Source: Calditrichia bacterium
GTDB taxonomy: Bacteria; Calditrichota; Calditrichia; JAJRVZ01
Reading direction: 5' to 3'
DNA: 64,000 nt
Assembly (NCBI GenBank): GCA_963777955.1
Contig: CAVZSQ010000022.1
Span: forward strand, 96,001-160,000
In this document: positions 9,513 to 38,945 of the stretch, piece after piece
How positions within the stretch are numbered: position 1 is the first letter of the stretch
How the letters are laid out: every line of letters begins with the position of its first letter
Notes under the pieces: generated by a model
What the model saw: only the letters and a program-made list of their open reading frames with translations
What the model was told of the DNA's origin: nothing
The model's database searches: none
Position numbers and translations under genes: made by a program

Positions 9513-10811
9513 ATGAAACGGGCCCTTCAGGTTCTGATCTTCGTCTCGCTGGTCATGATTTCCATCATAATATATTACCTGAGTCATGATTATGAAGCGG
9601 GTGATAGCGTAAAAAAAATTTATTTTGCCGATAATATATCCGCTGCCCACCAGAAACTGATCGACAAATTCAACCAGGAATATCAGGGACGCATTGAAGT
9701 CTTTCCGGTCAATCTGCCCTTCTCCAAATTCAGTACCAATGAACGTAAAGAGTTGCTGGCCCGTTCCCTGCGCAGCAAAAGCGACCGCATCGATGTCTTT
9801 GCCGTCGATTTGATCTGGGTACCCCGTTTTTCCCGCTGGGCTGAATCACTGGACATGTATTTTCCGGCTGAGCAGCACGGTTCGATCATCCCTAATGCCA
9901 TCGAATCGTGTTATTTTAACGGTCAGCTGGTCGGATTTCCTTTTTATATCGATGTGGGTCTGATGTACTACCGTAAAGATATGCTGCAACAACTAGCCGA
10001 TTATCCGTATTGGGAAAAAAAGATACAAGCATCGCTGACCTGGCCGGAACTGCTGACCTTAGCCAAATATCTGCATTCGCCGCAGGGATTCAGTTATATT
10101 TTTGCCGCTGATAATTATGAAGGCCTGGTTTGCAGTTTCCTGGATCTGCTGGTCAGCCAGCGAAGTTCGATTATGAGCGGGGACTCGGTCGACCTGGTTA
10201 CTGCTCCGGCCATTCGTTCACTGCAGTTACTGGTAGATCTGGTCAATACCTACAAAATCACGCCCCCGGCAGTGACTTCTCTTGATGAATATCATACGTA
10301 TCTCTATGCCTTGCGCTTTGATATTCCGTTCCTGCGCGGCTGGCCGGGCGCTAAAACCCAGTACCGTAATACGATTGAAAACGGGGAGAAGTTGAATTTA
10401 TTGGAATTTGCCCCCTTGCCCCATTTTGAAGAGGCGAACCGCACCTTTGTACTGGGCGGTTGGAACCTGATGATTCCCAGGTATTCCCGCCGGAAAACGG
10501 AATCACTGGAATTCATACGCTTTATCCTTCGTCCGGAAAATCAAAAGATATTATATAAGGAAGGCGGATTTATACCGGTCATAAGTGAGATGTATGCCGA
10601 TCAGGAATTTATTAAAGATAATCCGGAACTCAGCCGCTATCAGGCTCTGATCGAACAGGGTTTTCATCGCCCCAAGCTGGTGGATTATACCAAAATTTCG
10701 GATGCGATTTCATATTACAGCAACCTGGCAATCCAGGGACAGTTGACTGTCCCGGAAGCACTGCAGCGAGCCACCCATACTATTAACCAGAATCGCACGG
10801 TGATCAAATAA
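9513..10811 (+). CDS. Family 1 extracellular (sugar) solute-binding protein, N-terminal membrane anchor
   Basis: DVFAVDLIWVPRFS, GQLVGFPFYIDVGLMYYRKD, YEGLVC, FLRGWP and LGGWNLMI are typical of sugar SBPs; no lipobox; no ABC permease nearby. Confidence 0.88.
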   Translation: MKRALQVLIFVSLVMISIIIYYLSHDYEAGDSVKKIYFADNISAAHQKLIDKFNQEYQGRIEVFPVNLPFSKFSTNERKELLARSLRSKSDRIDVFAVDLIWVPRFSRWAESLDMYFPAEQHGSIIPNAIESCYFNGQLVGFPFYIDVGLMYYRKDMLQQLADYPYWEKKIQASLTWPELLTLAKYLHSPQGFSYIFAADNYEGLVCSFLDLLVSQRSSIMSGDSVDLVTAPAIRSLQLLVDLVNTYKITPPAVTSLDEYHTYLYALRFDIPFLRGWPGAKTQYRNTIENGEKLNLLEFAPLPHFEEANRTFVLGGWNLMIPRYSRRKTESLEFIRFILRPENQKILYKEGGFIPVISEMYADQEFIKDNPELSRYQALIEQGFHRPKLVDYTKISDAISYYSNLAIQGQLTVPEALQRATHTINQNRTVIK

Positions 10812-10836
10812 CCGAAAATAAAACAGCGAGATATAA

Positions 10837-12300
10837 ATGAATTCCAGACTATTTTTTCTACGGGGATATCGCTTCGAATTTCGTCACCTGCTGGTTGTGC
10901 TGATTTCCCTGATATTTTTCCAGATCCTTGTATCGATTATTCATAAAACATCGCTGCAGAACCTGCTGCTCAAAACGCAGGATTGGTATCAACGGGATGA
11001 AGCAGAACGCATGGCTAATCTGAGTACTACTTCTCTGGAATTGCTGCTGGAAAATATCCCGGCCCAGTTGTCCGCCGACCAGCAACGCCAGATTATTCAG
11101 GCCTTTGATATTGTACTGGGTCAGCAGTTATTGCAGCAAAATGTACAGGAAATATGCCTGATCGCACCGTACAACAATAAATTCATTGCTCTGGATGAAG
11201 GGAAACAGATCTTTAATTTTTTTATCAATAACGAACGATCAGTGGAAGTACCGGCCGATCAGCATGCTTCGGCGATTAAATTATTCGAGGAAGCCAGGGA
11301 AGAAGTTCAGAACAATGAACGGACTTACAGCCTGCGCGAGGGTGCGCAGACGTTTCATGTTTTTGTACCCTTCGTACCACGGGGTGAATTTACCGGGGCC
11401 ATATATGTAAAAAATACGCCGGATTTCAGTTATATCACGGGTGAAATTATTACCAGTTTTGATAAGATCAGTGCCATCTTTATTGCTTTAATCTTCCTGG
11501 GCCTGCTGGCCATGTTCTATATTTCGTCGTATACCGTCAAAGCGCGGGATGATGCGCAGAAATTACTTTTCCAGGAAAAGGAAAAATTGATCGCCGAACA
11601 AATTCATCACCGCAAGGAAGCACAATTTACCATGCGCATCTATCACACCCATCACAAGGCTGAAAAAATCATGGGTTTTATAAAGGAGGATTTGCGCGAA
11701 CTGACCTCGGCCTCGATTGAACAGATCAAATACCGGGTCAGCAAATATGCCAACTTCATATCCCGGGTGATTTATGATATGAAATGGTATGAGCCGCCGG
11801 TACAATCGATTCGCAATCCGATGTTCCGCACCGATCTCAATGAAGTCATCCGTTTTATCATTGAAAATATTTTTAAACGCACCTCAACGTCTTCCGGTTA
11901 TGATTTTGAACTGGATTTACACGAAGAAATTCCCAAACTTAATGTCAATGAGTTTGTAGTCTGGGAAATCATTGAACCGCTGCTGCAAAACAGTGTCGAT
12001 CATTCCGGGAAAAATGATGTGCGTATAAGTATTATGACCCGGTACGATGCGAATAAAAAAGAGGCCAGTCTGGTTATAACCGATAATGGCAGCGGTATTG
12101 TCGAAGAACTGCTTGAATCAGATGGAACGGGCCGGCAGCATATTTTTGAAGATCATGTTTCAACTAAAGAAGGTAATACCAACTCCGGGTATGGGTGTTA
12201 TATTGCCTATGAAATTGCCACCCAGCGCTGCAACTGGCAGATCGCTGCCGAAAACGGCGAAACGGGTGGAGCAAAATTTACCATAAAAATTCCATTTTAA
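10837..12300 (+). CDS. Membrane sensor histidine kinase (2 TM, periplasmic domain, atypical H-box, HATPase)
   Basis: Two hydrophobic helices; N-box EPLLQNSVDH, ITDNGSGI, IFEDHVSTK, NSGYGCYIA; His cluster RIYHTHHKAEK. Confidence 0.85.
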   Translation: MNSRLFFLRGYRFEFRHLLVVLISLIFFQILVSIIHKTSLQNLLLKTQDWYQRDEAERMANLSTTSLELLLENIPAQLSADQQRQIIQAFDIVLGQQLLQQNVQEICLIAPYNNKFIALDEGKQIFNFFINNERSVEVPADQHASAIKLFEEAREEVQNNERTYSLREGAQTFHVFVPFVPRGEFTGAIYVKNTPDFSYITGEIITSFDKISAIFIALIFLGLLAMFYISSYTVKARDDAQKLLFQEKEKLIAEQIHHRKEAQFTMRIYHTHHKAEKIMGFIKEDLRELTSASIEQIKYRVSKYANFISRVIYDMKWYEPPVQSIRNPMFRTDLNEVIRFIIENIFKRTSTSSGYDFELDLHEEIPKLNVNEFVVWEIIEPLLQNSVDHSGKNDVRISIMTRYDANKKEASLVITDNGSGIVEELLESDGTGRQHIFEDHVSTKEGNTNSGYGCYIAYEIATQRCNWQIAAENGETGGAKFTIKIPF

Positions 12301-12315
12301 AACCGGGCCGGGATT

Positions 12316-13765
12316 ATGAGAAGCCGAGCGATCCGTTTGCTGGTGATTGAAGACGAACAGTACGATGTCCGCCGGATCAGGAATACCTTAAAACCATTTG
12401 AACAGCGTATCCACATCCATGATGTGGTGGCCACCGGGCACTGCCGCCCTTGATTTAATCCGGGAAAATGAAAAATTCTACGATGTCATTATTATGGATT
12501 TTCATATTGCCGGCAGTCTTAATGGTGAAAACCTGATCCGCCAGATCAAAGCCATCGAGCCGCTGGTCCAGATAATCGTCGTGACCAAGATGACCATCAA
12601 TATTACTGATTTTGAATTTGCTAACCGTCTGATCGAAGCGGGAGCCATGTGGTACTGCACAAAATATCCCGTCGATATCGAAGAATATATTTACCAGCCC
12701 ACGGATTTCATCCTGAGTATCCTCAATGCCTATGAGAAACGCTGCCTGGAGCAGGCCCGGATCAGAACCGAGCAACGCCTGCAATATACCATTGATGAAC
12801 AGATCGAAGCCATACCGATCATCGGCAGCTCTCCCGGTATTGCCAAACTGCGTGAACAGATCAACCAGTGTGCCCGCACCGATACGACGGTTTTGATCCT
12901 GGGAGCATCGGGAACCGGCAAAGAACTGGTGGCCAAACACATCCATTTCCAGAGCAACCGTCGAAACGAGAAATTTGTACCGATCAACTGCGGCAGTATC
13001 CCCGAGCATTTGATCGAAAGTGAATTGTTCGGATTCGAGAAGGGGTCTTTCACCGGCGCCGATAAGAGCAAGCCGGGATTGTTTGAACTGGCCGATCACG
13101 GTACGATTTTCCTGGATGAAATCGGCGAGTTGCCGCAACCAGCACAGGTAAAATTACTGCGGGTGCTGCAGGAAGGGGAAATACAGAAAATCGGGCGGAC
13201 CAACCGTATTCAGGTCAATACACGCGTAATCGCCGCAACGAACAGTGATTTATGGAAGAGCGTGGAGCAGAAAAATTTCCGCGAGGATCTGTTCTACCGC
13301 CTGAATGTCCTGACCATAACTGTTCCCCCGGTCCGTGAACACCGCGAAGATGTGCCGGCACTTATCCGGCATTTCTTTATGGACTATGCCGAACGCAATA
13401 TGCTCAAAGTGCCGGAAATTACGGCAGAGGCCATGAAGCAATTGGAAACATTCTCCTGGCCGGGCAATGTACGGCAAATGCAAAATGTGGTGCAGCGCTT
13501 ATTGCTGACCACGAATACAGTGATCAATAAATCGGATGTGGAGAAAGTCATGAGCGGACCCAGCGGCGGAAACCCGCCCGCTGAACCGGTCTATAATTGG
13601 GACCCGGATCATATCCAGAATTGGCGCACGATGGAAAGGGAATTAAGAAAAAACTATTTTGAATTCGTCCGCAGCCACTCTAATTCAGATGCCGATACAG
13701 CACGAAAATTAGGTCTGGCTCCGCCTAATTACTACCGGATGTGTAAAGAAATTGGAATTAAATAA
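12316..13765 (+). CDS. Sigma-54-dependent response regulator (NtrC family: REC-AAA+-HTH); frameshift at GGG 12436-12438
   Basis: ATG 12316 gives MRSRAIRLLVIEDEQYD...VATG; removing one G joins ORF 12398-13765: DVIIMDF, GASGTGKE, ESELFGFEKGSFTGA, FLDEIGE, FREDLFYRLNV, WPGNVR, C-terminal HTH. Confidence 0.92.
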
Positions 13766-13781
13766 TTATCAAATAGATAAT
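13765..13781. promoter_or_regulatory. Candidate enhancer (UAS) for the sigma-54 activator
   Basis: Dyad ATTATC-N5-GATAAT about 85-100 bp upstream of the -24 element; the region is AT-rich, so a chance match is possible. Confidence 0.35.
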
Positions 13782-13837
13782 GAGTATATTATTAATTTAA
13801 TAATAAATTAATAATTTGAGAAAACTAAAATCTTAAA

Positions 13838-13865: not shown

Positions 13866-13881
13866 TGGCACTATTTTTGTA
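13866..13881 (+). promoter_or_regulatory. Sigma-54 (-24/-12) promoter of the glucan locus
   Basis: TGGCAC-TATTT-TTGTA versus consensus TGGCAC-N5-TTGCW (GT instead of GC at -12); lies between the activator gene and the first hydrolase. Confidence 0.7.
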
Positions 13882-13950: not shown

Positions 13951-14817
13951 CTGAAGAAATTATTCTTTCCGGTAATTTCTGTAATCCTGATTTTCCATTG
14001 CTTACTAAATAGTAGTTGCGATAAAAATAGTACGAAACCACCAGACCAAAAACCGGATTCGATATATGTTCCGCCAGGCTGGACGCTGGTCTGGCACGAT
14101 GAGTTCAATGCTGCTGAGATCGATCTTTCCAAATGGGAGCACGAAGTCAACGCCTGGGGGGGCGGGAATAATGAACTGCAGTATTATACTGCCCGGCCGG
14201 AAAATTCCTACACAACCGACAGTGTACTGATCATCAAAGCGATAAAGGAGACCTATACAGGTCCTGAAGGCACGCGCCAGTATACCTCGGCACGCCTGCG
14301 CACACTCAACCAGGGGGACTGGAAATACGGCCGTTTTGACATCCGGGCGCAATTGCCTTATGGCCAGGGGCTCTGGCCGGCAATCTGGATGCTGCCGTCG
14401 GACTGGATCTACGGCGGCTGGGCGGCCAGCGGGGAGATCGATATCATGGAACTACTCGGCCATGAACCGCCGAAGGTATATGGCACACTGCATTATGGCG
14501 GAGAGTATCCAGATAATGTACGCAGCGGATCATCTTACACCCTGTCCGGCGGTACATTTTCGGAAGATTTTCACCTGTTTACGCTGGAATGGGACACCAC
14601 CGAAATCAACTGGTATGTGGATGGTGAGCATTATCTGACCCTGAACAGCTGGTACAGCGCCAATTATGGTTTTCCGGCGCCTTTCGATCAAAGGTTTCAT
14701 CTCTTATTAAATGTAGCTGTAGGCGGGAACTGGCCGGGCAACCCGGACGCCTCGACAGTTTTCCCGCAGGAGATGAAGATCGATTATGTAAGGGTCTTTG
14801 AAAGGGATGATAATTAA
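13951..14817 (+). CDS. GH16 laminarinase-type endo-beta-1,3-glucanase, probable lipoprotein
   Basis: The frame of ORF 14353-14817 is open back to 13933: (L)KKLFFPVISVILIFHCLLNSSC, WTLVWHDEF, GGGNNELQYY, YTSARL, GLWPAIWML, GEIDIME, LLLNVAVGG. Start is CTG 13951 after AAGGA, or ATG 13934 with a missing base. Confidence 0.9.
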   Translation: MKKLFFPVISVILIFHCLLNSSCDKNSTKPPDQKPDSIYVPPGWTLVWHDEFNAAEIDLSKWEHEVNAWGGGNNELQYYTARPENSYTTDSVLIIKAIKETYTGPEGTRQYTSARLRTLNQGDWKYGRFDIRAQLPYGQGLWPAIWMLPSDWIYGGWAASGEIDIMELLGHEPPKVYGTLHYGGEYPDNVRSGSSYTLSGGTFSEDFHLFTLEWDTTEINWYVDGEHYLTLNSWYSANYGFPAPFDQRFHLLLNVAVGGNWPGNPDASTVFPQEMKIDYVRVFERDDN

Positions 14818-16837
14818 ATGACCAATAAATTAAATTCCAAATCTCAAAATCCAATCAGGCTGTTTATTACGGCGATGATTCTACTGATAGCTTCGCAGAA
14901 CAGTTTTTCTGCATTTTTCAAAACGCAGGGTGACACAATTCTGGACACGAACGGGCAGCCCATATTATTACGCGGGGTTGGTCTGGGCGGCTGGCTGGTT
15001 CCCGAAGGGTATATGCTGCGTACTCCCGGCTTCGGCTCACCCAGCTCAATCCGGGCTCAGTTTGAAGGTTTGATCGGAGCAGAAAATACGGATCTGTTTT
15101 TTGACCTGTACCGGGCCAATTATGTAAATGAAAACGATATCGCGGCCATTGCCGCTCTGGGCTATAATTCCATCCGGCTGCCGTTTCATTATAACCTGTT
15201 TTATGACCCGGACAGTTCCAAATTTGAAGAGGCAGGTTTTGCTTTGGTCGATACATTCCTGGAATGGTGCCGCCAGTATAACCTGTTCGTGATCCTGGAT
15301 ATGCACTGCGCCCCGGGGGGACAGAATGCCGGGAATATATCCGACAGCGACGGTGAAGAGGCGCGCCTGTGGACCAACAGTGCCAACCAGGATCTGACCG
15401 TGCTGATCTGGACAGAAATTGCCGGCCGTTACGTTAATGAAGAATTGATCATCGGTTATGATTTGCTGAATGAACCTGTCCTGCCATCCGGCTATAGTAA
15501 CAACATTCTGAAATCTTTTTATATCAGGATGATTGCTGAAATAAGACAGGTAGATGCAAATCATATACTCTTCATCGAAGGGAACAACTGGGCCACAGAT
15601 TTTAATTTATTAACTCCGCCCCTGGGCTCTAATACGGTCTATGCTTTCCACAAGTACTGGAGCGAGACCACGGTGTCAACCATCCAGAATATGCTCGATA
15701 TCAGGACGCTCTATAATGTTCCGCTATGGATGGGAGAATCGGGAGAGAATTCGAATCCGTGGTTTTATGAAACCATTCACCTGCTGGAACAGAATGATAT
15801 CGGCTGGAACTGGTGGACGCATAAAAAGATCGCCACTACCACCAGCCCGTACTCGGCACTGATTACTGAAAACTACCAGACCGTACTCGATTATCTGGAT
15901 GGCAATACGACCAAACCCTCGGAGGAATTTGCCAAAAACGCCCTGTTTGAGATGGCGGAAAATCTGGCCATTGATAAATGCGAGTACCATCCTGATGTAG
16001 TAGCCGCACTCTTTGACGGGCAATATAATTCGGTCAGCAAACCGTACCAGGATTTAAAAATCCCGGGAACCATCGATGCGGTAAATTATGATATCGGGAA
16101 CAACGGTCTGGCTTACTTCGATTCGGATTACAAACGGATCCGCTGGGATGTCTGGCAGCCCTGGAATTCAGGCGGAGCATACCGCAATGACGGAGTGGAC
16201 ATTGAGGCAGCGCAGGACGCCCAGGGGGCGGCATATAATATCGGCTGGATTAAAAACGGGGAATGGATCAGGTATACGATCAATTCAGAAATTAACGGTA
16301 TTTACCGCTTAGCTCTGCGTATTGCTTCGTCCGCTAATACCGGCCGGCTGAATGTCGAGATAGACGACCAGGCCCAGGTCAGTAATCTTTCCGTACCCAA
16401 TACCGGGGGCTGGCAGAATTGGCAATGGCTGGATGCCGGGGATGTAGAATTAACGGCAGGATCGCATGAACTGCGCTTATACTTTGTCCAGGAAGGATTT
16501 AATATCAACCAGATAAAATTTTCGTTACTGAGCAGTTCCGGATTTGAAAAGATCAATAGTACATTTTTTTGCGGGAAGAATTACCCGAATCCCTTTAACG
16601 GAGTCAATACGATTCCTATTGTTTTGCCAAATCCTACCAGGGTCAGGATTTCAGTGTATGACAACCAGGGCAAATTGATTAAAACCGTAATCGATGGCAA
16701 TCTGTCCGAAGGTTTATCGGAGATCAGGCTGGGATGGCCGCAACAGTTCAGGCGATTCAGTGGCTTCGGGCCAGTATTTTTATCTGCTGGATATAAATAA
16801 TAAAAAGATTACACGGAAGATGATTTTGTTGAGGTAG
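14818..16837 (+). CDS. GH5 glycoside hydrolase + CBM6 + C-terminal sorting domain (frameshift ~16727)
   Basis: GLGGWLVPEGYM, IRLPFHY, ILDMHCAPGGQ, YDLLNEP, FHKYW, WMGESGEN; CBM6 YRNDGVDI..GWIKNGEWIRY..PNTGGWQNW. Removing one G gives WDGRNSSGDSVASGQYFY...KMILLR, stop 16835-16837. Confidence 0.9.
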
Positions 16838-16838: not shown

Positions 16839-16904
16839 AATAACCCACCCCATACCCCTCCCTTTCAGCCTATAGGCTGAAAGGGAGGGGCTAGGGGAGG
16901 GTCA
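16839..16904. repeat. REP-like GC-rich hairpin element, copy 1
   Basis: CCCCTCCCTTTCAGCC-TATA-GGCTGAAAGGGAGGGG inside a 66-nt unit that is 64/66 identical to 30800-30865 (only the loop differs). Confidence 0.9.
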
Positions 16905-16916: not shown

Positions 16917-18707
16917 ATGCGTATATTAAAAATACTGATATTAATATTGCTCTCGGCGAATCTCCTCCCGGCCAAAACCTATAAAGGGGCTGAATTGCGT
17001 ACGGTGAGCACATACCTGTACGGAAAATTCGAAGTGCGAATGAAGTCGGCAGCCGGCAGCGGATTGCTTTCCTCATTCTTTACTTATTATGACGGGACGG
17101 GTCTGCCGGCCAACTGGAACGAAATTGATATCGAGATCATGGGCCGCTACACGGATCAGGAACAGTTTAATGTGATTTCGCCGGGACAGGTTAACCATGT
17201 GTATAGTCATAACTCTCCTTTCAATCCCCAGCAGGCTTTTCATGTTTATTCTTTTGAATGGACCCCTGATTATATCGCCTGGTCGGTCGATGGCTATGAA
17301 GTATACCGGCAGACAGGTGATCATATCGCCGGTATTTCCCGGGCTCAGAAAATTATGATGAACATCTGGCCACCGGATAATGTGGGTTGGGCCGGTAGTT
17401 TCAATCCGGCTATTTTACCGGTCTATGCTTATTATGATTGGATTAAATACTATTCTTATACTCCGGGTGTTAACGACAATTTTACTTTGCAGTGGACTGA
17501 TGATTTTACCAGCTGGGATCAGGGCAGGTGGGCCAAGGCGACGCATACCTTTGACGGGAATAATTGTGATTTTATCCCGGCTAACGCGGTCTTTACCAAT
17601 GGCTATATGATTTTGTGTCTGACCGATGCTGTCAACACCGGTTATAACGGAGACCCGGTTGGCGATGAAGACATTGATCCCCCTTATATGGCCTGGGCCA
17701 GATCTTATCGTACCTGTGTAGATGCGGCCTTTTCAGAAGAGATCGATCCGCTTTCTGCCCAGACTTTATCGAATTATACCATTCCGGGTGCAGAAATCAA
17801 CAACGTTGTTTTACTGACCGATCAGCGCCGGGTCAGATTGCAGGTTGACAGTCTGGATAATGAGTTGAGTTACAACCTGATTGTCAATGGGATCAAGGAT
17901 CTGGCTGAGCCGGCCCATACCATGAGTCTTACGCTGCGGCAGATTACCAGTCCTCCGGCGGTTCCGCTTAAAATTAATTGCGGCGGTGCGGCCTTATCCG
18001 GTTTTATCGCCGATCAGGTCTGGGATTATTCAAAAGAATATGGCCGGGTGGGCGGTTATACGGTCACACAGCAGTCCGGAACGCAGTTCCAGGGAACCTT
18101 GCAGCCGGAAATATATGAAACGGAATTAAGAGACATCACCTTCTATAATATTCGCCTGGCCGAAGGAATTTACAATATTACCCTGCTGCTGGCCGAAACC
18201 GAATACAGCGCCGCCAATCAAAGAGTTTTTGATGTCTACTGTGAAGGACAATTATATTTTAATAACCTGGATATATATAATGAAGCGGGCAGCTTTACAG
18301 CATTGGAAAAGGTGATCGAAAACCTGACTGTTTCTGACGGATTGTTAGAGTTATACCTGGATACCAGCCAGGGCGAAACCGTATTGAGCGGCATCAAAAT
18401 CGACCTGATCGCTACGGGAATACAAAGTCCCGCGGCAGCGTCTGAGTCGTTTAAGTGGAAGATCTATCCTAATCCATTTAATGCCGCGGTAACTGTTGAA
18501 TATCAATTACCCGGATCCTCGACGGTTCAGTTAAAAGTGTATAACATGCTGGGTCAATTGGTGTTATCACTCGATCAGGGCTATCAATCATCAGGCAATC
18601 ATTCAATCAGGATCGATGGCAGTAGCTTAAGTTCCGGGATTTATTTTATTGAAGTGCTTGTGGATCGTGAAATTTCCGGCAGGATAAAGTTAACTAATTT
18701 AAAGTAG
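16917..18707 (+). CDS. GH16 (EIDIE, lichenase-like) + Ig-like + malectin/CBM57-like + C-terminal sorting domain
   Basis: YGKFEVRMKSAAGSGLLSSFF, WNEIDIEIMG, FHVYSFEWTPDYI; malectin INCGG..FIADQ..YNITLLLAE..RVFDV; IYPNPFN...SSGIYF...KLTNLK. Confidence 0.88.
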   Translation: MRILKILILILLSANLLPAKTYKGAELRTVSTYLYGKFEVRMKSAAGSGLLSSFFTYYDGTGLPANWNEIDIEIMGRYTDQEQFNVISPGQVNHVYSHNSPFNPQQAFHVYSFEWTPDYIAWSVDGYEVYRQTGDHIAGISRAQKIMMNIWPPDNVGWAGSFNPAILPVYAYYDWIKYYSYTPGVNDNFTLQWTDDFTSWDQGRWAKATHTFDGNNCDFIPANAVFTNGYMILCLTDAVNTGYNGDPVGDEDIDPPYMAWARSYRTCVDAAFSEEIDPLSAQTLSNYTIPGAEINNVVLLTDQRRVRLQVDSLDNELSYNLIVNGIKDLAEPAHTMSLTLRQITSPPAVPLKINCGGAALSGFIADQVWDYSKEYGRVGGYTVTQQSGTQFQGTLQPEIYETELRDITFYNIRLAEGIYNITLLLAETEYSAANQRVFDVYCEGQLYFNNLDIYNEAGSFTALEKVIENLTVSDGLLELYLDTSQGETVLSGIKIDLIATGIQSPAAASESFKWKIYPNPFNAAVTVEYQLPGSSTVQLKVYNMLGQLVLSLDQGYQSSGNHSIRIDGSSLSSGIYFIEVLVDREISGRIKLTNLK

Positions 18708-18822: not shown

Positions 18823-18933
18823 AAGTTGTCCATTTCAAAAGAATAATACTTAAAAAAGGAGGGCATACTGCAGCAAAATAAACTTAACAGAATTGAACAC
18901 ACAATGTTTCATAAACTAATAACGGAGGTTGTT

Positions 18934-29228: not shown

Positions 29229-29233
29229 TTTCT

Positions 29234-30733
29234 ATCAGGCGATATATAGAATTATCTATCCTGGCGGTTCTGATAATTTTTTATTCCGGTTGTAAAAAGG
29301 AACATGCTGCTGAGGATAAGAATGAAGTTATTTTAGCACGGGTTGGGGATAAAACCATATCGGTGGATGAGTTTGTACGCCGGGCCGAATATACCATTCG
29401 CCCGGATTACTGCCAGGGCCAGAATTATATTCATAAAAAGATTGTGCTGAATTCACTGATTGCCGAGAAAATGCTGGCTATGGAAGCAGGATCCGATAAC
29501 GAACTAAGCCGCAATGAGGAATTTCAGAATTATTTACGCGGCCGGAAAGAACAGGCCATGCGGCAATGGTATTATTATCAGGAAGCGTACAATGAGGTGA
29601 CTCCCGATACCGCAGAAATTAAAAAGGAATTCGCTGTGGCCGGAAGAACCTATAAGATTTCCTATTTCACCCTGCCACTTAACAACTCTCAGGAAAAAAT
29701 GCGTGAACGGTTAAAACATGATGCCACGGCCTTTGAAACGGTATTCAAAGAAATCGCCGGAGCAGAGAACACCCTGCCGCAAAAAGAGATCGGCTATGAT
29801 AAACCTGAAGATGAACAGATCTATGCACAATTGTTTTTTAATCCTGTACGGCAGGGACAGCTAATCGGTCCGCTGGAAACGGCTGATGGTACACAACTGG
29901 TTCTGCGTGTGGACGGCTGGAGCGATGATCTGGCACTGTCCGGTCAGCAAATTCAGGAGCGCTGGCGTACGGTTAAAGAAAATGTCACCAATCGTAGGCC
30001 TGGACATCTATGAGCGCAAAGTGCTGGATATTATGAAGGGCAAAAAAATAGAATTCAACCGGGATGTTTTTTTTAAGCTGGCCGAAATTGTGGCAGCGGA
30101 TTATTACAAAACTGAAGAGGAGAAGAAACAGAGTTTCAATAAAAAATTCTGGAACGAAGACCGCGACGAGATGGTACTCGATGACCGGTCCAGTCAACTG
30201 GAATCGATCCGGGATCAGCAACTTTTTACTGTCGATGGACAGGCCTGGACCGTGGGGGCCTTTGAGCGGGAATTACAATCTCATCCACTGGTCTTCCGTC
30301 AAAGGCGCTTTCCGCGAAACCGGTTTGCCGAACAATTTAAACTGGCTATTGTGGACATGGTCAGGGATAAATACATCACGGCAGCGGCTTATCAAAAGGG
30401 TTACGATAAGGTTGGAGCGGTCGAGCGGAATTCCCGGATGTGGCAGGATAACCTGTTAGCCCTGTATCAAAAGCATACCTACGTGAATTCTCTGAAGACG
30501 CAGGCTAAAGACCAGCTGCAAATTATTACCGAAGAACTGAATCCTTATGTCCAGGGACTCTTTTTAAAAAATATAGCGATGATATAAAAATTGATGTAAA
30601 GAAATTTGAAGAAATCCAACTAACCGGTGTGGACATGTTTGTGATCCAGCGTAATGTGCCATTTCCGGTGGTAGTTCCGGGTTTCCCGCAGTTGACTACG
30701 CATGACCGGCTGGATTACGGACAAAAAATGTGA
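29234..30733 (+). CDS. SurA/PrsA-like (PPIase-related) lipoprotein; frameshifts at ~29996 and ~30565; non-canonical start
   Basis: The frame of ORF 29363-30013 is open from 29222: IRRYIELSILAVLIIFYSGC (lipobox), VILARVGDKTISVDEF, LNSLIAEKMLAMEA, GQLIGPLET. Continues in 29886-30587, then a third frame KYSDDIKID...VVPGFPQLT...QKM, stop 30731-30733. Confidence 0.7.
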
Positions 30734-30865
30734 TGACCCACTCCATTCCCCCTCCCTGGTCCCCGAGCGGAGTCGAGGGGATAAGGGAGGGGGGTCAAGA
30801 ATAACCCACCCCATACCCCTCCCTTTCAGCCAAAAGGCTGAAAGGGAGGGGCTAGGGGAGGGTCA
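30734..30865. repeat. Two adjacent REP-like hairpin elements (degenerate copy with nested mini-REP; copy 2 of the 66-nt element)
   Basis: TGACCC..CCCCCTCCCT-[TCCCC-GAGCGGAGTCGA-GGGGA]-AGGGAGGGGGGTCA (30734-30797), followed by the 66-nt unit at 30800-30865. Confidence 0.85.
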
Positions 30866-30900: not shown

Positions 30901-32409
30901 ATGAACAAAATTCATTTCTTTTTATTTGCAATTTTAATTCTGTCATTCATTTCAGGCTGCAGTAATAAGCCCATGATGCAAAATTACTCGAAAGCCACGA
31001 TCCTGCAGACCTCCCGGGCGGGGGATAATTTAAAGAACACAGGGACATTTGAGTTAAGTGCAGCAGGACAAAGCGATAATATCCTGGTCGAGATTTTACC
31101 CGATCAAAAATATCAGCAGCTGGTCGGTTTCGGAGGAGCGTTTACCGAATCATCAGCCCAGGTATTAAAGCAATTAGATCAGGTCAAACGGGATGAAGTG
31201 ATCAGGGCATACTTCAGCCCGGCCGGGGCGGCCTATTCCCTGACCCGCACCCATATCAACAGTTGTGATTTTTCCCTGAATAATTATGCCTATGACAATA
31301 CACCCGGGGATGTCGAGCTGAAGGATTTCAGCATCAAGGAGGATATGGATGATCTGATCCCTCTGATTAAAGACGCCCTGGCGGTTGAAAAGGCTGATTT
31401 TAAAATAATCGCTTCACCCTGGACCGCTCCGCCCTGGATGAAAGATAATAATAATTGGAATAACGGATCATTGAAACCAGAATACTATCCGGCCTGGGCT
31501 CTGTACTTTTCCAGGTACATTAAAGCCTATGAAAAAGAGGGCATTCCGATCTGGGCGGTCACTGTTGAGAATGAACCGGAGGGTAATGGCGGAAATTGGG
31601 AAAGTATGATCTACACCCCCCGGCAAATGGCCGACTTTATAAAAGATCATCTGGGTCCGCAATTTGTCAAAGACAGTATCAAATCTGAAATCCTGATTTT
31701 TGATCACAACAGAGACCATGTCAAGGAATGGGCCGAGCAGATACTCAGTGATGCTGCTGTGGCCAAGTATGTATGGGGCACAGCGGTGCACTGGTACAGC
31801 AGTACGAATAACTGGTACCCCGAAACGCTGAACGAAGTGCACCAGAAATTTCCGGATAAACATTTACTGCATACTGAATCCTGTATAGATACCGAAGTGC
31901 CGGTCTGGCAGGATGACGCCTGGTACTGGAAAAAAGAAGCCACTGATTGGGGCTATGACTGGGCACCGGAAGCAGATAAACCCCTTCATCCCAAATATGT
32001 ACCGGTCTACCGTTATGCCTGCGATATCATCGGCGGCCTGAATAACTGGCTGACCGGCTGGGTGGATTGGAATATTGTGCTGGATGATAAAGGGGGTCCG
32101 AACCATGTCCGTAACTGGTGTATTGCACCGGTTATAGTTAAACCGGAAACAAAAGAGGTGTACTATACACCCCTTTATTATGTAATGTGTCATTTCAGTA
32201 AATATATGCGTCCTGGTGCCGTACGCCTCGGGATCAATAGCAGCAACGCAGATTTAATGATTACCGCCTGTCTGAATACGGATAACAGTATAGCCGCGGC
32301 TGTTTTAAATCGGACAGAAAATCCGGTTACTTATGATATAAAACTGTCCGGCAAGGTAACCACAGTCACTATTCCGGAAAATGCCCTGCAGACCATAGTC
32401 ATTCAATAA
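30901..32409 (+). CDS. GH30 glycoside hydrolase (probable beta-1,6-glucanase/debranching enzyme), lipoprotein
   Basis: Lipobox FISGC; GFGGAFTES, RTHINSCDFS, ASPWTAPPWMK, VENEP (acid/base), VHWY, HTESC (nucleophile), WVDWNIVLD..GGPNH. Confidence 0.9.
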   Translation: MNKIHFFLFAILILSFISGCSNKPMMQNYSKATILQTSRAGDNLKNTGTFELSAAGQSDNILVEILPDQKYQQLVGFGGAFTESSAQVLKQLDQVKRDEVIRAYFSPAGAAYSLTRTHINSCDFSLNNYAYDNTPGDVELKDFSIKEDMDDLIPLIKDALAVEKADFKIIASPWTAPPWMKDNNNWNNGSLKPEYYPAWALYFSRYIKAYEKEGIPIWAVTVENEPEGNGGNWESMIYTPRQMADFIKDHLGPQFVKDSIKSEILIFDHNRDHVKEWAEQILSDAAVAKYVWGTAVHWYSSTNNWYPETLNEVHQKFPDKHLLHTESCIDTEVPVWQDDAWYWKKEATDWGYDWAPEADKPLHPKYVPVYRYACDIIGGLNNWLTGWVDWNIVLDDKGGPNHVRNWCIAPVIVKPETKEVYYTPLYYVMCHFSKYMRPGAVRLGINSSNADLMITACLNTDNSIAAAVLNRTENPVTYDIKLSGKVTTVTIPENALQTIVIQ

Positions 32410-32444: not shown

Positions 32445-34652
32445 TTGAAAACGAATCACATCTTATCGGTTAAGGAAAAAATTGGATACGGACTTGGGGA
32501 TACGGCTTCGAATTTTTATTTCCAGATGTATATCAATTTCCTGCTTTTCTTTTATACTGATGTTTTTGGAATTCCGGCGGCAGTGGCCGGTACCCTGTTT
32601 CTGATTTCAAGAATCTGGGATGGTATCAATGATCCCATCATGGGCATGATCGCGGACCGCACCAACACCCGCTGGGGAAAATTCCGGCCCTATCTGCTGT
32701 GGATGATGCTGCCGCTGGCAATAATCGGTGTGATCATGTTCACCACACCTGATCTGTCGGTTAAAGGGAAAATTATATATGCCTACATCACCTATAATTT
32801 AATGATGATGGCTTATACCGCTATTAATATTCCTTATTCGGCCATGCTGGGCGTCCTTTCACCGGATACACAGCAAAGAACCAGCGCTTCGACCTACCGG
32901 TTTGTGCTGGCCTTTGTCGGTGCTCTGGTAGTGCAAAGTGCCACGCTGCCATTAGTCTATTCCATCGGCCGTGTGGACCAGGGCATAACCCTGGCTGATC
33001 ACACCTTGAGAATTCAGGAAGTTAATAACCGGACCGCCAGAATTATTGTGCAGGCTGATGACGGGATTAACCAGACCACGAATGAATTTTTAATCAACAT
33101 TGACCGGAAGGGCGAACAAAGTCCAATCGTAAAAACGCCGCTAAACGACAGAGTCTTTGAACAGGGTTTTAAAATCAGTGAAACGAATATATCAGCAGTT
33201 TTTAACGATCCGGATGGAGATAAGTTGACCTATGAAGTCAGGAACAAGAACGACGATGTGGTAGAAGCCTATTTAACCGATAGTATCCTGACCCTGGCCG
33301 AAAAAGGGATTGGTGTTTCAGAAATAACTCTAACGGCTCGTGATGGTCATTATGGTCAGACCAACGATTTGTTCACGGTTTACGTTAATGCCGCCGGAAA
33401 TCATGCCCCTGTACTGGCTAGTGCGATTGCCGATACACTATTTGACCTGGGAACCCCGGAGCGCACTATCAATTTATCCGGCAGATTCTCCGACCAGGAC
33501 GGGGACCAACTTAAGTATGAAGTGCAAGCGGAGAATGGTACTGCTGTCTCGGCCAAAGTTTCAGACGCAATGCTGACTTTTCAGCTGAATAAGGTTGGTA
33601 TATCAAAATTTATTTTAACTGCCAGTGATAATAAAGGCGGGGAAGCCCGGGATATATTTTTAGTAAAATGTTCATCAGGAAAAAATGATCCTCCGGCTGT
33701 CGCCATTCCTCTGCAGAATGTCAAACTGGCGGCAGGATTCAAAGAGTACTCGCTTGATATTGGCGGGACTTTCCAGGATCCGGACGGCGATCCGTTGACC
33801 TATTCTATCCGCAAGGTTGATGTGGCCAAAGGATTTCAATTCACTTTAATAATCTACGGTTTGCTGGCCTGTATTTTATTCTATTTTACATTTAGAATGA
33901 CCAAAGAACGCGTACAACCGCCTGTGGATCAAAAAACATCAATGAAGAATGATCTGAAAGATCTGGTTCATAACAGGCCCTGGATGGTCCTGCTGGTTAT
34001 GGGTATTTTCACCCTTGGGTATATTATTATTCGTTCCGGCACCATCATGTATTATTTTAAATATTATATTGAAAATGAGCTCCTGGCTTCTCTGTTCATG
34101 GTTAGCGGAACAGCGGCAGTCATCGCCGGCGTGGCCTGTACGGATTTTCTAGCGAGAATCCTGGGTAAGAAAAAATTATATTTGATCGTCATGGGCCTGT
34201 CCACTATTCTGACCATGCTTTTTTATTTTATTCCCAGGGAACAAATTGTACTGGTTTTTACAGTAAATATTATCCTGCAATTTATCATGGCTCCGCAGGC
34301 CCCCTTGCTCTGGGCTATGTATGCCGATACGGCTGATTATTCTGAATGGAAAAATGGTCGAAGAGCTACCGGTCTTATTTTTTCGGCAGCAACATTTGCG
34401 CAGAAATTTGGCATGGCGTTGGGCGGAGGACTGGCCGGCTGGCTGTTAGCCATGTTCGGGTTCCAGGCCAATGTTCAGCAAACTCCGGAAACTCTCAATG
34501 GTATTTGTCTGATGATGAGTTTTATACCGGCCGTCGGGACCATTATTGCCACCGTGTTTGCTTTTTTCTATGAGTTGGATGATAAGACCATGAAAAAAAT
34601 TGAAAAAGATCTGGCTGAGCGAAAAAGTCAATACGAAATAAAAACAAGTTGA
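32445..34652 (+). CDS. GPH-family (MelB/XylP-like) MFS glycoside:cation symporter with ~285-aa Ig/cadherin-like insertion
   Basis: KEKIGYGLGDTASN, FFYTDVFG, RIWDGINDPIMGMIADRTNTRWGKFRPY, INIPYSA, TKERV, WAMYADTADYSEWKNGRRATG, QKFG; insert at ~32970-33820 with three F.D.DGD.L.Y motifs. Confidence 0.92.
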   Translation: MKTNHILSVKEKIGYGLGDTASNFYFQMYINFLLFFYTDVFGIPAAVAGTLFLISRIWDGINDPIMGMIADRTNTRWGKFRPYLLWMMLPLAIIGVIMFTTPDLSVKGKIIYAYITYNLMMMAYTAINIPYSAMLGVLSPDTQQRTSASTYRFVLAFVGALVVQSATLPLVYSIGRVDQGITLADHTLRIQEVNNRTARIIVQADDGINQTTNEFLINIDRKGEQSPIVKTPLNDRVFEQGFKISETNISAVFNDPDGDKLTYEVRNKNDDVVEAYLTDSILTLAEKGIGVSEITLTARDGHYGQTNDLFTVYVNAAGNHAPVLASAIADTLFDLGTPERTINLSGRFSDQDGDQLKYEVQAENGTAVSAKVSDAMLTFQLNKVGISKFILTASDNKGGEARDIFLVKCSSGKNDPPAVAIPLQNVKLAAGFKEYSLDIGGTFQDPDGDPLTYSIRKVDVAKGFQFTLIIYGLLACILFYFTFRMTKERVQPPVDQKTSMKNDLKDLVHNRPWMVLLVMGIFTLGYIIIRSGTIMYYFKYYIENELLASLFMVSGTAAVIAGVACTDFLARILGKKKLYLIVMGLSTILTMLFYFIPREQIVLVFTVNIILQFIMAPQAPLLWAMYADTADYSEWKNGRRATGLIFSAATFAQKFGMALGGGLAGWLLAMFGFQANVQQTPETLNGICLMMSFIPAVGTIIATVFAFFYELDDKTMKKIEKDLAERKSQYEIKTS

Positions 34653-34687
34653 TAAATAATAACAGTGAATTTAAATCCGGGAGTCGT

Positions 34688-35479
34688 ATGAAAATTAAAT
34701 TATATTTTATCTGCCTGGTTTTGCTGTGCACGGCAACTTATTGCGGCAAGGGGTGGAAACTGGCCTGGTCGGATGAATTTAATTATACCGGCCTGCCGGA
34801 TTCCCTGAAGTGGGGATATGATGTCGGGGGGCATGGCTGGGGAAACCAGGAAAAACAGTATTACACTGAGAACCGCCTGGAAAATGCCCGGGTGGAGAAT
34901 GGCTTGCTTACCATTGAAGCCCGTAGAGATTTCTGGAATGAGCATGAATATACTTCGGTGCGCCTGGTCAGCAGGGGCAAGGGTGACTGGACCTGCGGGC
35001 GTTTTGAGATACGGGCAAAACTCCCCTCAGGCCGGGGAACCTGGCCGGCAATCTGGATGCTGCCTACGACCGGGAATTATGGCAGCGGCGGCTGGCCGGA
35101 TAACGGTGAAATTGATATCATGGAACATGTGGGTTATAATCCGGGAATGATCCATGGTTCTACTCATTGCCAGGCCTATTACTGGAAAAATCATAATCAA
35201 AAAACAGGTACTATCAAAGTCCCCGATGCCGAAACGGAATTTCACAATTATATCCTGGAATGGTATCCGCAGGAAATCAAGGTGTTTCTTGACGACAGTC
35301 TTTATTTTACCTCCAAAAACGAAGGTAGCGGTTGGCAGGTCTGGCCTTTTGATAAACCATTTCATTTGCTGCTAAATATTGCTGTCGGCGGCGCCTGGGG
35401 AGGGGTACAGGGAATAGACAGTACCATTTTTCCGCAAAGGATGGATGTGGATTACGTCCGGGTTTTCCAACAAGAATAA
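34688..35479 (+). CDS. GH16 laminarinase-type endo-beta-1,3-glucanase, exported/lipoprotein
   Basis: WKLAWSDEFN, GWGNQEKQYY, GRGTWPAIWML, WPDNGEIDIMEHVG, WPFDKPFHLLLNIAVGG; ATG 34688 after GGAG. Confidence 0.92.
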   Translation: MKIKLYFICLVLLCTATYCGKGWKLAWSDEFNYTGLPDSLKWGYDVGGHGWGNQEKQYYTENRLENARVENGLLTIEARRDFWNEHEYTSVRLVSRGKGDWTCGRFEIRAKLPSGRGTWPAIWMLPTTGNYGSGGWPDNGEIDIMEHVGYNPGMIHGSTHCQAYYWKNHNQKTGTIKVPDAETEFHNYILEWYPQEIKVFLDDSLYFTSKNEGSGWQVWPFDKPFHLLLNIAVGGAWGGVQGIDSTIFPQRMDVDYVRVFQQE

Positions 35480-35488
35480 TATGCTTTT

Positions 35489-38400
35489 ATGCAGAAGCAG
35501 ATCATTGCCGGCAAAGCCCCGCTTAAGAACAAATCCAAACCGGTCAAGGGCGGATATGTTGTTTTAGAAAATGAACTTTTCTACCGGATCGCCAATTATG
35601 ACTGCATGAATCCCTTCTTCATGAGTATCGTCAGCAATTCCGATCATTGGATGTTCATCTCGTCAAATGGTGCTCTCAGCGCAGGACGGAAAAATCCCGA
35701 TCACGCTTTATTCCCCTATTATACGGAAGACAAAATTCAGGACAGTGCCGGGATTACCGGCAGTAAGACCATTATTCGTCTTGAGGAAAAAGGGCGGGAT
35801 TTTTTATGGGAGCCCTTTTCCACCAGGTATCAGGGACTATACAATATTGACCGCAATATTTATAAAAATATATACGGTAATAAAATAGTTTTTGAAGAAA
35901 TAAATAATGACCTGAAACTCTGTTTTTCGTACACACTGGTTGAATAGCGAGCGGTTCGGCTTCATTAGAAAATCAAAAATCATAAATCTGGGCAGCAGAA
36001 ATGTAGCAGTTAACCTGTTGGATGGAATTCAGAATCTGTTGCCTTATGGTATCAGCCAGCGTTTCCAGGCAGACTATAGTACGCTGGCCGATGCCTATAG
36101 AAAAAATGAGTTAGAGCCTGCTGCCGGCCTGGGTATTTATTCATTAAGTTCCATCCCGGTAGACAAGGCCGAGCCCAGCGAAGCCTTAAAAGCCACCACG
36201 GTCTGGTCAGCTGGTATCCAGGTCAAGAATATACTGATCTCCTCAACTCAATTGGATTCATTCCGTAACGGTCTGGTGATTAAACAGGAGACCGATAAGC
36301 GGGCGGTTCGCGGAGCGTATTTGCTGAATATTGCGACCCGTCTTACGGTACATCAGGGAAAAACATGGTACATTGTAGCTGATGTCGATCAGGATGCAGC
36401 AGATGTCGCGGCCTTAACTCAAATGCTGGTTAGCAAAAAAAATCTGATCCAACAGATTGAAACAGATGTGGATCAGGGCACCGGGAATCTGATCAGCATG
36501 GTGGCCAACTCCGACGGACTGCAGAAATCGGCGGATAGATTAAGTACTTCCCGTCATTTTTCAAATGTGCTGTATAATATATCACGCGGCGGAGTGTTCT
36601 GTGATAATTATCAGATAAATACCGTGGACCTCAGATCATTTATCCATGAGGCCAATAAAAAAGTATTTAAGAAATTTCAGCATTACTTAAAAGGCCTGCC
36701 TGCAGCGATTGATTTCGGCGAGTTAATTAAGCAGGTTGATCAAAAACACGATCCCGATCTGCAGAGATTATGTTATGAATATCTGCCTTTGATCTTCAGC
36801 CGGCGCCATGGCGATCCCAGCCGGCCCTGGAACTGGTTTTCCATCGATATCAAGGATGAACAAGGGGAAAAAAATTTAAATTATCAGGGCAACTGGCGCG
36901 ACATTTTTCAAAACTGGGAAGCACTGGCCCTGTCATTCCCGGTCTATATCGAAAACATGATTTGTAAGTTTGTCAATGCCTCCACGCCCGATGGTTATAA
37001 TCCATACCGGGTCACCCGGGCCGGATTTGACTGGGAAGTGCTGGATCCGGCGGATGCCTGGTCCTATATCGGCTACTGGGGAGATCATCAGGTTATCTAT
37101 TTACTCAAGTTGCTGGAACTCTCGCGAAAATACCACCCCGGGAAATTAGAATATCTTTTAATCAGGGATATTTTTGTTTATGCCGATGTACCCTACCGTA
37201 TCAAAACATACCAGGAAATATTAGCGAATCCGCATAAAACCGTCGATTTTGACCGGGAGCAGGAGGATTTGGTCCGGCAGCGTGTAGAGGAAACCGGCAG
37301 CGATGGGAAACTATTGTGCAGCGGCCAGGGTAATATTTATCATGTCAATCTCGCCGAGAAACTATTGGTGCCCATTTTGACCAAGGTATCCAATTTTATT
37401 CCGGAAGCAGGAATCTGGATGAATACCCAGCGTCCCGAATGGAACGATGCGAACAATGCCCTGGTTGGTCACGGAGTATCGATGGTGACTTTATACTATC
37501 TGCGCCGGCACATATTATTCTGCCGCGACCTGTTTAATGCTTTTCAAACTGAAACTGTTCTGTTGTCCAGCGAGGTCAAGATCTGGTTTACCAGCATCTT
37601 CAGGGAATTGGAGCGACAAAAGTATTTATTGCAGAGCGCTGTCTCTGATAAAAACCGCAGAACCGTACTTGATCGGCTGGGTGAAGCAGCCAGCACTTAT
37701 CGCGCAAAAATTTATTCAAAGGGTTTCTCGGGGTACAGGTTAAAGGTCAAATCCGGACAACTGGTCAAATTTTGTGAATTAGTCCTGGCCTACATCGATC
37801 ATTCAATCCGGGCCAATAAGCGTGCAGATCAGTTGTATCATGCCTATAATCTGATGAAGACCGGAAAACAGAAAACCATCACTATCCGGCATCTGTATGA
37901 AATGCTGGAAGGGCAGGTGGCTATCCTGAGTTCCGGATTTCTGACGGCCAGGCAGGCGATTCAACTTTTGCGGGCGCTGAGAAACAGCAAACTCTATCGT
38001 GAAGATCAAAACACTTATATTCTGTATCCTGACCGCCAGTTACCCCGCTTCAGCAAGAAGAACAATATACCTGCCGGGGCCATTAAAAATCCGGCGTTAT
38101 TAAAAATCCTGCTGAACAGCAGGAATAAAATGATCATGAAACGGGATGCCAGGGGCGGACTTCATTTCAATGGCGCCTTCCGCAATGCTGCGGATCTGCG
38201 GCAGGCTCTGGACAGTATACGGCAAAATGATCCGCGGTCGCTCACTGCAGAGGATCTGGATCTTGTATTAAAAATATTTGAAGACATGTTTGATCATCAG
38301 TCTTTTACCGGAAGATCGGGAACGTTTTACAAGTACGAGGGTTTGGGCTGTATCTACTGGCATATGGTTTCCAAACTCCTGCTGGCCGTTCAGGAAAACT

Positions 38401-38945
38401 ATTATCGTGCTTTGCAGGTTAAAGAGGAAAAGGCCATCCTGGCGGAGTTAAGAGCATATTATTATGCCATCAGGGCCGGACTCGGCCTGGCCAAATCCCC
38501 CGACCTGTACGGCGGTTTTCCGACAGACCCCTACTCTCATACCCCCGGTCACACGGGAGCCCAGCAACCCGGAATGACCGGACAGGTGAAAGAAGATATT
38601 ATTTCCCGCTTTGCGGAACTGGGCATTATGATTCACGATGGGACGATCAGTTTTCATCCCGGATTGCTGCGCCGGGAAGAATTTCTGGTCGAATCCGGTT
38701 TGTTTTCATTTTTTGATGTTAACGGTAAGCGGCAAAGCATCCGGCTGGGATCAAAGTGTCTGGCTTTTACTCTGAACCAGGTGCCGATGGTGTATCATCT
38801 GTCCGAAACTGAAAAAATCGTCATGACCACCATCGCAAACAAAACGAAGACAATCCTGGGACTTACCCTTGACGGAAAATATTCTTTAGCCATTTTTAAT
38901 CGTGAAGGGAAGATCAAAAAACTGGATGTGTATTTAAAGTTTTGA
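35489..38945 (+). CDS. GH149-like beta-1,3-glucan phosphorylase (~1150 aa, cytoplasmic; frameshift ~35936)
   Basis: ORFs 35489-35947 and 35940-38945 join by removing one base; FSRRHGDPSRPWN, YQGNWRDIFQNWEAL, GIWMNTQRPEWNDANNALVG, FTGRSGTFYKYEGLG.IYWHMVSKLLLAV, FPTDPYSHTP..GAQQPGMTGQVKED; no signal peptide. Confidence 0.82.

Follow-up and report, generated by a model that had tools for sequence, protein, structure and literature searches.

How does a bacterium import beta-glucan without a SusC/SusD pair? This question is raised by a locus at positions 9513 to 38945 of our window, i.e., the whole 64,000-nt stretch of DNA analysed here (C22:96001-160000 of the Calditrichia bacterium assembly GCA_963777955.1, G000; 4.24 Mb, 92% complete). 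All 15 genes of the locus are present on the + strand and are bordered on both sides by − strand genes. In order, they encode a sugar-binding protein (SBP), a histidine kinase (HK), an NtrC-type response regulator (RR), the glycoside hydrolase (GH) GH16a, a GH5 with a carbohydrate-binding module (CBM6) and a C-terminal domain (CTD), GH16b with malectin and CTD, a multi-CBM protein with CTD, a TonB-dependent receptor (TBDR; 21715..24414) and a protein of ~1180 aa (24470..28013) for which we use the working name BIG. These are followed by a PorV-family barrel, a SurA/PpiC-like lipoprotein, GH30, a GPH symporter with an Ig insert, GH16c and GH149. Pfam and NCBIfam matches confirmed the 15 co-directional genes and the labels given to them in an earlier reading of the DNA letters, referred to below as the sequence-only reading. 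The locus is likely a beta-glucan utilisation system in which BIG, secreted through the type IX system (T9SS) and presumably held on the surface by its own PorV-like barrel, serves the importer as SusD would. This interpretation builds on the gene content, on predicted folds and synteny and on the promoter motifs, from which we infer secretion, docking and contact with the TBDR.

The TonB-dependent receptor, BIG and the adjoining barrel

With carbohydrate-active enzymes (CAZymes), a transporter and a regulator for one glycan class clustered together, the locus works like a polysaccharide utilisation locus (PUL) yet passes neither the SusC nor the SusD test. PF07980 (SusD_RagB) had no match in the host genome at its 92% completeness, SusD families were absent from the Pfam matches of the locus proteins, and the best TIGR04056 (SusC) score in the host genome was 109.9 bits against a cut-off of 368, with 49 bits for the locus TBDR. 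These scans bear out the lack of SusC and SusD that had been noted from the letters. Modelling of the product encoded next to the TBDR, on its downstream side, gave an all-beta protein and not a SusD-like TPR lipoprotein. SprA, PorU and TonB exceed their cut-offs in the host genome, as does RpoN (422 bits vs 277), and a search for GldM gave no match there and none in the controls either.

The fold of BIG was modelled from an intact homologue (L003/P0001, 64-65% identical) with an alignment of 146 sequences. The model (pLDDT 87.6) is nearly all beta and has no catalytic helical barrel. Its N-terminal half resembles the non-catalytic N-domain supersandwich of GH15, GH94 and GH65 enzymes (top Z 19.0, rmsd 3.1, 256 aligned; VIA-align), and its last 110 residues resemble the PorZ CTD (Z 11.6, rmsd 2.4, 91 aligned, 24% identity; VIA-align). 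The canonical type A CTDs of the host genome, ~129 by motif count, are distinct from this variant CTD. Thus, the 24470-28013 product does not have the SusD fold, the outcome on which the sequence-only reading had made its proposal depend. In line with this, SusD and TPR chains are absent from the best 50 VIA rows, bar one 'TPR-domain containing' entry over the supersandwich range, in a comparison that barely probed residues 766-1070. Conservation amounts to 0.76-0.80 in the supersandwich, the Fn3-type domain and the CTD, 0.70 in the acidic insertion and 0.52-0.59 in the middle domains.

At the sequence level, BIG gave weak profile matches only (PorZ, E 3e-6; FlgD_ig, E 0.001), no match to the type B CTD (PF13585/TIGR04131), no match in the PDB and unnamed clusters only in the Atlas; the intact homologue has no Pfam match, and Foldseek with the whole BIG model returned low-TM matches only. 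The family is large and unnamed, with 1436 homologues among 7990 scored candidates, forming 672 clusters at 50% identity (E at most 1e-30). It includes a protein from a cultured carrier, P0069, which is Calab_3088 of Caldithrix abyssi according to its source and is 58% identical to BIG.

The barrel encoded directly downstream matches NF033709 well above the cut-off (214 bits vs 90), yet stays under the PorV and PorQ equivalog cut-offs. Together with the gene adjacency described below and the presence of SprA, this is the picture of a cognate cargo-barrel pair, and the barrel is accordingly a predicted anchor of BIG. In PorZ, the CTD remains attached to the barrel PorQ (PMC10202324, covered in part, as are all publications cited here), and by analogy the variant CTD of BIG may be retained and barrel-bound. 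The anchored module would then be physically linked to the TBDR; a complex prediction for the TBDR barrel (residues 236-914) and BIG residues 24-344, a construct without the plug and with part of the supersandwich, scored 0.00, an outcome that speaks neither for nor against this link. Intact homologues of the lipoprotein that follows match SurA_N/Rotamase weakly.

Synteny was analysed in GTDB contigs by ORF clustering of the best 80 of 156 confirmed stretches; two loci without a called BIG ORF were dropped. The 80 loci carry the titles Calditrichota, KSB1/Zhuqueibacter, Neomarinimicrobiota (Marinisomatota), Ignavibacteriaceae and unnamed bacteria, and the nearest fetched relative (L002, 'uncultured Calditrichota bacterium') shows 87-92% identity. 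BIG is directly preceded by the TBDR in 66/72 and directly followed by the barrel in 52/57 loci with the respective flank. Among the 33 loci with wide flanks, the trio TBDR-BIG-barrel occurs in 31, the CBM protein in 28, the lipoprotein in 27 and all five core genes in 25, while 28 harbor a gene of a beta-glucanase family (GH16/GH5/GH3/GH30). GH30 and GH149 were found in only 2 and 1-2 of the best 80 related loci, respectively. The GH30-GPH-GH149 tail is therefore rare; GH3 (25 loci) and SSS (20) are usual, and LacI (10) often takes the place of the sigma-54 sensor. HK/RR genes were counted in 8 loci, which is too low because flanks of 10 kb were searched and, in the window, sensor and BIG are 10.7 kb apart. 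Since GH30 and GH149 are rare and GH3, SSS and LacI variable, the conserved unit is a five-gene core (CBM protein-TBDR-BIG-barrel-lipoprotein) plus glucanases, and not the 15-gene set. Conservation of the gene set in other lineages, as anticipated from the letters, thus holds for the core, across the predicted phyla, and fails for the full set.

A BIG-family match (E at most 1e-30) is present in 84/86 genomes of the host phylum. At E at most 1e-100, the family was matched in 78 of the 151 genomes sampled from the phylum to which a Marinimicrobia-titled locus belongs, and in 33 of 151 for the phylum with an Ignavibacteriaceae-titled locus. The host genome itself carries 11 clusters of TBDR, variant CTD protein and barrel, showing that the trio is a general multi-copy module that is not beta-glucan-specific. 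The trio is kept where gene order is shuffled (L044, L064, L072). We also observed tandem arrays of BIG-family genes, three before one barrel at L055:282-10980 and several in G044:C8:122149-156379, and a further TBDR-CTD-barrel cluster just left of the window (C22:89260-95612). GDSL-TPR proteins and CotH-kinase-CTD proteins recur in fetched loci (L118, L119, L121, L131; L006, L028, L030, L035, L043, L067, L070).

Enzymes, substrate and the sigma-54 sensor

The features of the locus are listed below.

Features of the beta-glucan locus, in window coordinates
Feature	Position	Strand	Evidence and remarks
Membrane-anchored sugar-binding protein (SBP_bac_1/8), likely sensor input	9513..10811	+	Pfam; best PDB matches trehalose/maltose-binding proteins; one N-terminal transmembrane segment (TM)
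Sensor histidine kinase, 2 TM, YHTHHKAE motif	10837..12300	+	HATPase_c; TM prediction; motif conservation
NtrC-type sigma-54 activator: receiver, AAA+ with GSFTGA, C-terminal DNA-binding region	12316..13765	+	frameshift ~12439
Two tandem palindromes TTATYA-N3-TRATAA, predicted upstream activator sites	13766..13803 (starts 13766, 13789)		
Sigma-54 -24/-12 element, GG...GT variant	13866..13880	+	100 and 77 bp past palindromes
GH16a, laminarinase-type (EIDIME), probable lipoprotein, probable CTG start	13951..14817	+	
GH5 + CBM6 + type A CTD	14818..16837	+	frameshift ~16728 in tail
GH16b: lichenase-type 1,3-1,4-beta-glucanase-like + malectin + type A CTD	16917..18707	+	
Multi-CBM protein: two jelly-roll CBM-like domains, Fn3, CBM9-like, type A CTD	18904..21405	+	AF2, Pfam
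TonB-dependent receptor: N-terminal extension, plug, barrel	21715..24414	+	TIGR04056 SusC cut-off not reached
BIG, ~1180 aa: beta-supersandwich with acidic insertion, Fn3-type, variable beta domains, variant PorZ-like CTD	24470..28013	+	
PorV/PorQ-family outer-membrane barrel, predicted cognate anchor of BIG	28063..29121	+	NF033709 214 bits vs cut-off 90
SurA/PpiC-like lipoprotein, ~500 aa in relatives	29230..30733	+	approximate start; two frameshifts
GH30, probable lipoprotein, predicted beta-1,6 debranching glucosidase (substrate inferred)	30901..32409	+	
GPH/MelB-type symporter, ~270-aa insertion of tandem Ig-like domains	32445..34652	+	
GH16c, laminarinase-type, probable lipoprotein	34649..35479	+	best PDB 3iln
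GH149 beta-1,3-glucan phosphorylase, no signal peptide seen	35489..38945	+	NF058639 1469 bits main piece vs cut-off 1150

Five of the 15 genes are split in the assembly: the RR (~12439), the GH5 tail (~16728), BIG (~24848), the lipoprotein (~30000 and ~30570) and GH149 (~35940). The RR, GH5 and BIG breaks are single-base insertions when aligned with close relatives, contigs from other public runs differ by indels at 24850/24851, 29996/30000 and 30561-30577, and all four genes other than GH149 read through in relatives. Pseudogene decay was therefore rejected for these four, whose breaks we read as assembly errors. The two GH149 ORFs match consecutive stretches of NF058639 (2-136 and 138-1133), and this break, which none of the listed matches of other-run contigs covers, is probably an assembly error likewise. 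The SprA and PorU genes are also fragmented in the host genome, fitting an indel-prone assembly.

GH16c has the laminarinase 3iln as its best PDB match (E 3e-105) and is 43% identical to GH16a, which lacks an ATG; its apparent start is a CTG at 13951, behind an AAGGA motif, and the CTG is kept in the same-genus locus L112. Residues 17-252 of GH16b match 1,3-1,4-beta-glucanases of the lichenase type, GH5-CBM6 matches GH5 endoglucanases and exo-1,3-glucanases, GH30 scores higher with glucosylceramidase-type GH30 (268 bits) than with 5ngk (BT3312; 198 bits), and the main piece of GH149 exceeds the NF058639 cut-off. These matches point to beta-1,3-glucan, including 1,6-branched and mixed-linkage forms, as the target. 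The proposal of laminarin or fungal beta-1,3/1,6-glucan was hence right about a beta-glucan locus, by its CAZyme families, and too narrow in leaving out mixed linkages. Similarly, extracellular cleavage by all glucanases had been assumed: a CTD is carried by GH5 and GH16b only, whereas GH16a, GH16c and GH30 have lipoprotein-like N-termini (judged by eye), so that 'extracellular' is not established for these three.

The multi-CBM protein (833 aa; AF2 pLDDT 80.2) has no recognised catalytic domain. Its model matches CBM9 (Z 20.1, rmsd 2.4, 185 aligned) and CBM11 (Z 16.5, rmsd 2.3, 142 aligned), and its structure neighbours at Z 16.5 include CBM11/CBM30. In the GPH symporter, the tandem Ig-like domains occupy residues ~190-460, between hydrophobic segments, and presumably lie in a periplasmic loop, given the topology of MelB. 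Some ten proteins of the major facilitator superfamily (MFS) with the same insert among the 120 matches listed indicate a small but real family.

The sensor opens the locus, and no ABC permease accompanies its SBP. The YHTHHKAE motif of the HK is at least 90% conserved in 21 sequences. HK orthologues are found in 45/86 genomes of the phylum and were not found in four genomes reached via related loci, which are incomplete. The activator loop reads GSFTGA in the window protein and GAFTGA or GSFTGA in relatives. Among 20 sensor loci fetched for their long contigs, the SBP adjoins the HK in all 20 and the RR comes next in 19. In 16 of them GH16 and/or GH5 follow, with a TBDR further on in the fetched stretch of ten of these; L113, L122 and L126 depart from the pattern, and the L116 sequence stops early. 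The same sensor also heads beta-glucanase loci with a more distant TBDR/BIG subfamily (TBDR 35-39% identical; L115, L119, L121, L124, L128, L131), and trio subfamilies thus seem exchangeable within this PUL type.

Two motifs were recognised by eye downstream of the RR, the tandem palindrome TTATYA-N3-TRATAA and an element of the form TGGYAY-N5-TTGH. The palindrome was found in 22 of the 28 discovery segments, a set that includes the window, the -24/-12 element in 13 and both in 13 (shuffle maxima 4, 1 and 0), a count that is circular because the motifs were derived from the same segments. Among 20 further, held-out loci, of which 17 have the RR end, the palindrome was recovered in 8/17, the element in 8/17 and both in 4/17, compared to shuffle means of 0.35, 0.16 and 0 and maxima of 2, 2 and 0; the loci of this promoter test include kin and are not independent. 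A -24/-12 element with upstream palindromes is the promoter architecture of bacterial enhancer-binding proteins, and with the motifs recovered in held-out loci the first promoter is very likely sigma-54 dependent. The sigma-54 control proposed earlier thus gains direct sequence support from element and palindromes, with RpoN and the GSFTGA loop also present. Scans for sigma-70 promoters and terminators stayed at chance level.

Besides these genes, the locus contains a near-identical, REP-like (repetitive extragenic palindromic) intergenic hairpin element at 16840-16900 and 30801-30865, a 20-mer of which has 33 copies in the host genome with up to 2 mismatches. To the left, 1995-9047 (− strand) encodes a Ser/Thr kinase with PEGA repeats beside a split beta-helix/choice-of-anchor D/CTD protein, and an ordinary TolC-MacA-ABC-MacB type exporter cluster lies at 42309-47071.

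A model for beta-glucan uptake and its alternatives

In our model, the CTD-bearing GH5-CBM6 and GH16b would be exported via SprA and cleave beta-1,3 and mixed-linkage glucan extracellularly, with the multi-CBM protein binding the polymer at the same stage. BIG would retain its variant CTD, dock on the cognate barrel beside the TBDR and aid the capture of oligomers; its secretion and docking are modelled on PorZ/PorQ and the type B CTD/PorP pairs (PMC10202324). After TonB-driven import, the lipoprotein GH16s and GH30 would trim and debranch the oligomers, short products would enter via the GPH symporter and cytoplasmic GH149 would phosphorolyse them. The SBP loaded with periplasmic oligosaccharide would activate the HK and the NtrC-type activator, which would bind the tandem palindromes and open the sigma-54 promoter at 13866. 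CTD proteins may in this way functionally replace SusD. That they also replace the lipoproteins, as had been suggested, is overstated, as lipoproteins are still encoded in the locus.

Several observations weigh against this model. Regarding its regulation, the locus has one strict sigma-54 site only, so that control of the distal 25 kb requires read-through or further promoters; the -12 element reads GT, not GC; on its own, the -24/-12 pattern is no more frequent in the window than chance would give (2 seen vs 1.9 expected), and it is position and conservation that count. Palindromes occur without a strict -24/-12 element in seven related loci (L054, L060, L061, L065, L069, L077, L080), and in L122 housekeeping genes come after the sensor. 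Six of the seven loci share a TGGTCTGGTA motif instead. As to the importer, SusD matches occur in 31/86 genomes of the phylum, at 1-3 per genome, indicating that SusD and BIG systems are not mutually exclusive, and at L055 tandem BIG genes stand without an adjacent TBDR in view.

The fold of BIG raises the question of whether it is an undescribed surface enzyme, i.e., an endo-glycanase, lyase or epimerase on the supersandwich, that feeds the TBDR rather than a binding lid. A supersandwich alone can catalyse, as in its neighbours the GH174 endo-fucanase (Z 14.0) and the mutarotases, which are aldose epimerases (Z 12-14; VIA-align), and this shared fold keeps the enzyme reading open; BIG has many invariant acidic residues, and invariant Asp, Glu and Trp are numerous in the supersandwich. 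We nevertheless regard an enzymatic BIG as distinctly unlikely, since the best matches are the non-catalytic N-domains and many of the invariant acids sit in a DxDxDG-rich insertion, of a kind typical of Ca binding. Moreover, five glycanases are already present in the locus, and BIG paralogues stand beside many different TBDRs, with some triads carrying unrelated cargo with the same CTD type. Alternatively, the barrel might be a mere secretion shuttle or anchor and BIG an adhesin or calcium-bound surface protein, co-regulated with the TBDR and not in complex with it. Adhesins do have cognate cargo-barrel gene pairs (SprB/SprF, type B CTD; PMC10202324), and the L055 array with its one barrel and other BIG genes without a TBDR in view would fit. 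This is unlikely, however, given the strict adjacency to the TBDR, which is repeated in the 11 paralogous clusters of the host genome and survives in the shuffled loci. The frequent company of the SurA/PpiC-like lipoprotein would suit a third role, in which BIG, barrel and lipoprotein are assembly factors for this class of TBDR instead of capture parts; with a carbohydrate-enzyme-type supersandwich, a T9SS-like CTD and middle domains that vary between subfamilies as substrate-specific parts would, BIG makes this very improbable.

BIG as a barrel-anchored partner of the importer is the most likely reading. Extended beyond this locus, the model would mean that Calditrichota, KSB1, Marinisomatota (SAR406) and Ignavibacteria possess a second, independently built utilisome as the main glycan-uptake architecture of these phyla, which are abundant and uncultured, in which a T9SS-secreted lid on a private PorV-like barrel replaces SusD, with about ten copies per genome for different substrates and, here, an SBP-kinase-sigma-54 switch; we see about equal reason to believe and to doubt this wider view. 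PUL prediction keyed on susC/susD pairs overlooks such loci, and glycan use in Calditrichota, KSB1 and SAR406 is thus probably under-called. If BIG is a barrel-anchored lid, it would couple TonB-dependent import directly to T9SS secretion and would offer PUL detection a new marker. As operator and promoter can be read from the sequence, the model is directly testable.

Comparison with known systems

Bacteroidota SusC/SusD PULs are regulated by hybrid two-component systems (HTCS), extracytoplasmic function (ECF) sigma factors or SusR, in contrast to the SBP-HK-NtrC/sigma-54 control seen here. Moreover, the partner of their receptor is a TPR lipoprotein, whereas the locus TBDR fails TIGR04056 and is paired with an all-beta CTD protein and a barrel. 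Both arrangements share a TBDR with a conserved surface-partner gene beside it, a binder with multiple CBMs, enzymes of the GH16, GH30 and GH5 families and a linked sensor, as described for laminarin/beta-glucan PULs and utilisomes (PMC11658791). GH149 is found together with TBDR, GH16 and GH30 in beta-1,3-glucan loci, and the GH149 type II clusters of Alteromonadales resemble our locus in having a TBDR, GH16 (malectin), a two-component system, a PF13347 MFS transporter and GH149, with no SusD listed (PMC5827456). Differences are that no CTD protein or PorV-like barrel is described for them in the part of that paper covered, and that their regulator is a PF06580 HK/COG3279 pair, as opposed to NtrC plus SBP; GH17, PF06580 HK and COG3279 had no matches in our locus, where the RR is Sigma54_activat.

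The SusD-free state itself is thus not new, contrary to one part of the claim that the system is undescribed; the barrel-anchored partner module is the part that was not found in our literature search. This search returned no description of the trio or the sensor, with supplements and most subscription journals outside its range, and the trio goes unmentioned in the covered parts of the C. abyssi and M. roseus genome papers, the Jermuk laminarinase paper and T9SS/TBDT reviews.

Among T9SS pairs, PorZ/PorQ, SprB/SprF and type B CTD/PorP likewise combine a CTD protein gene with its own adjoining PorV-like barrel, and PorZ provides the closest structural relative of the BIG CTD. BIG differs in lacking PF13585/TIGR04131, and no TBDR-coupled pair is described in the covered part of PMC10202324. 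The sensor is reminiscent of the SBP-assisted kinases CuaDSR (PMC10384115), AioXSR and ChiS-CBP (PMC8050422), in which an SBP gene lies by an HK-RR pair that regulates sugar or substrate genes; their SBP, HK and RR belong to other families, while here an NtrC-type RR, a tandem palindrome and a -24/-12 element stand upstream of beta-glucanases. The nearest parallel to the trio in print may be the xylan locus of Rhodothermus marinus (Rmar_1067-1081), which also has a SusC/SusD pair (PMC6987092). There, a hypothetical CTD protein and a second hypothetical protein come after a TBDR, among CTD-bearing CAZymes; known from a table listing alone, these hypotheticals are possibly the same trio, unrecognised in print.

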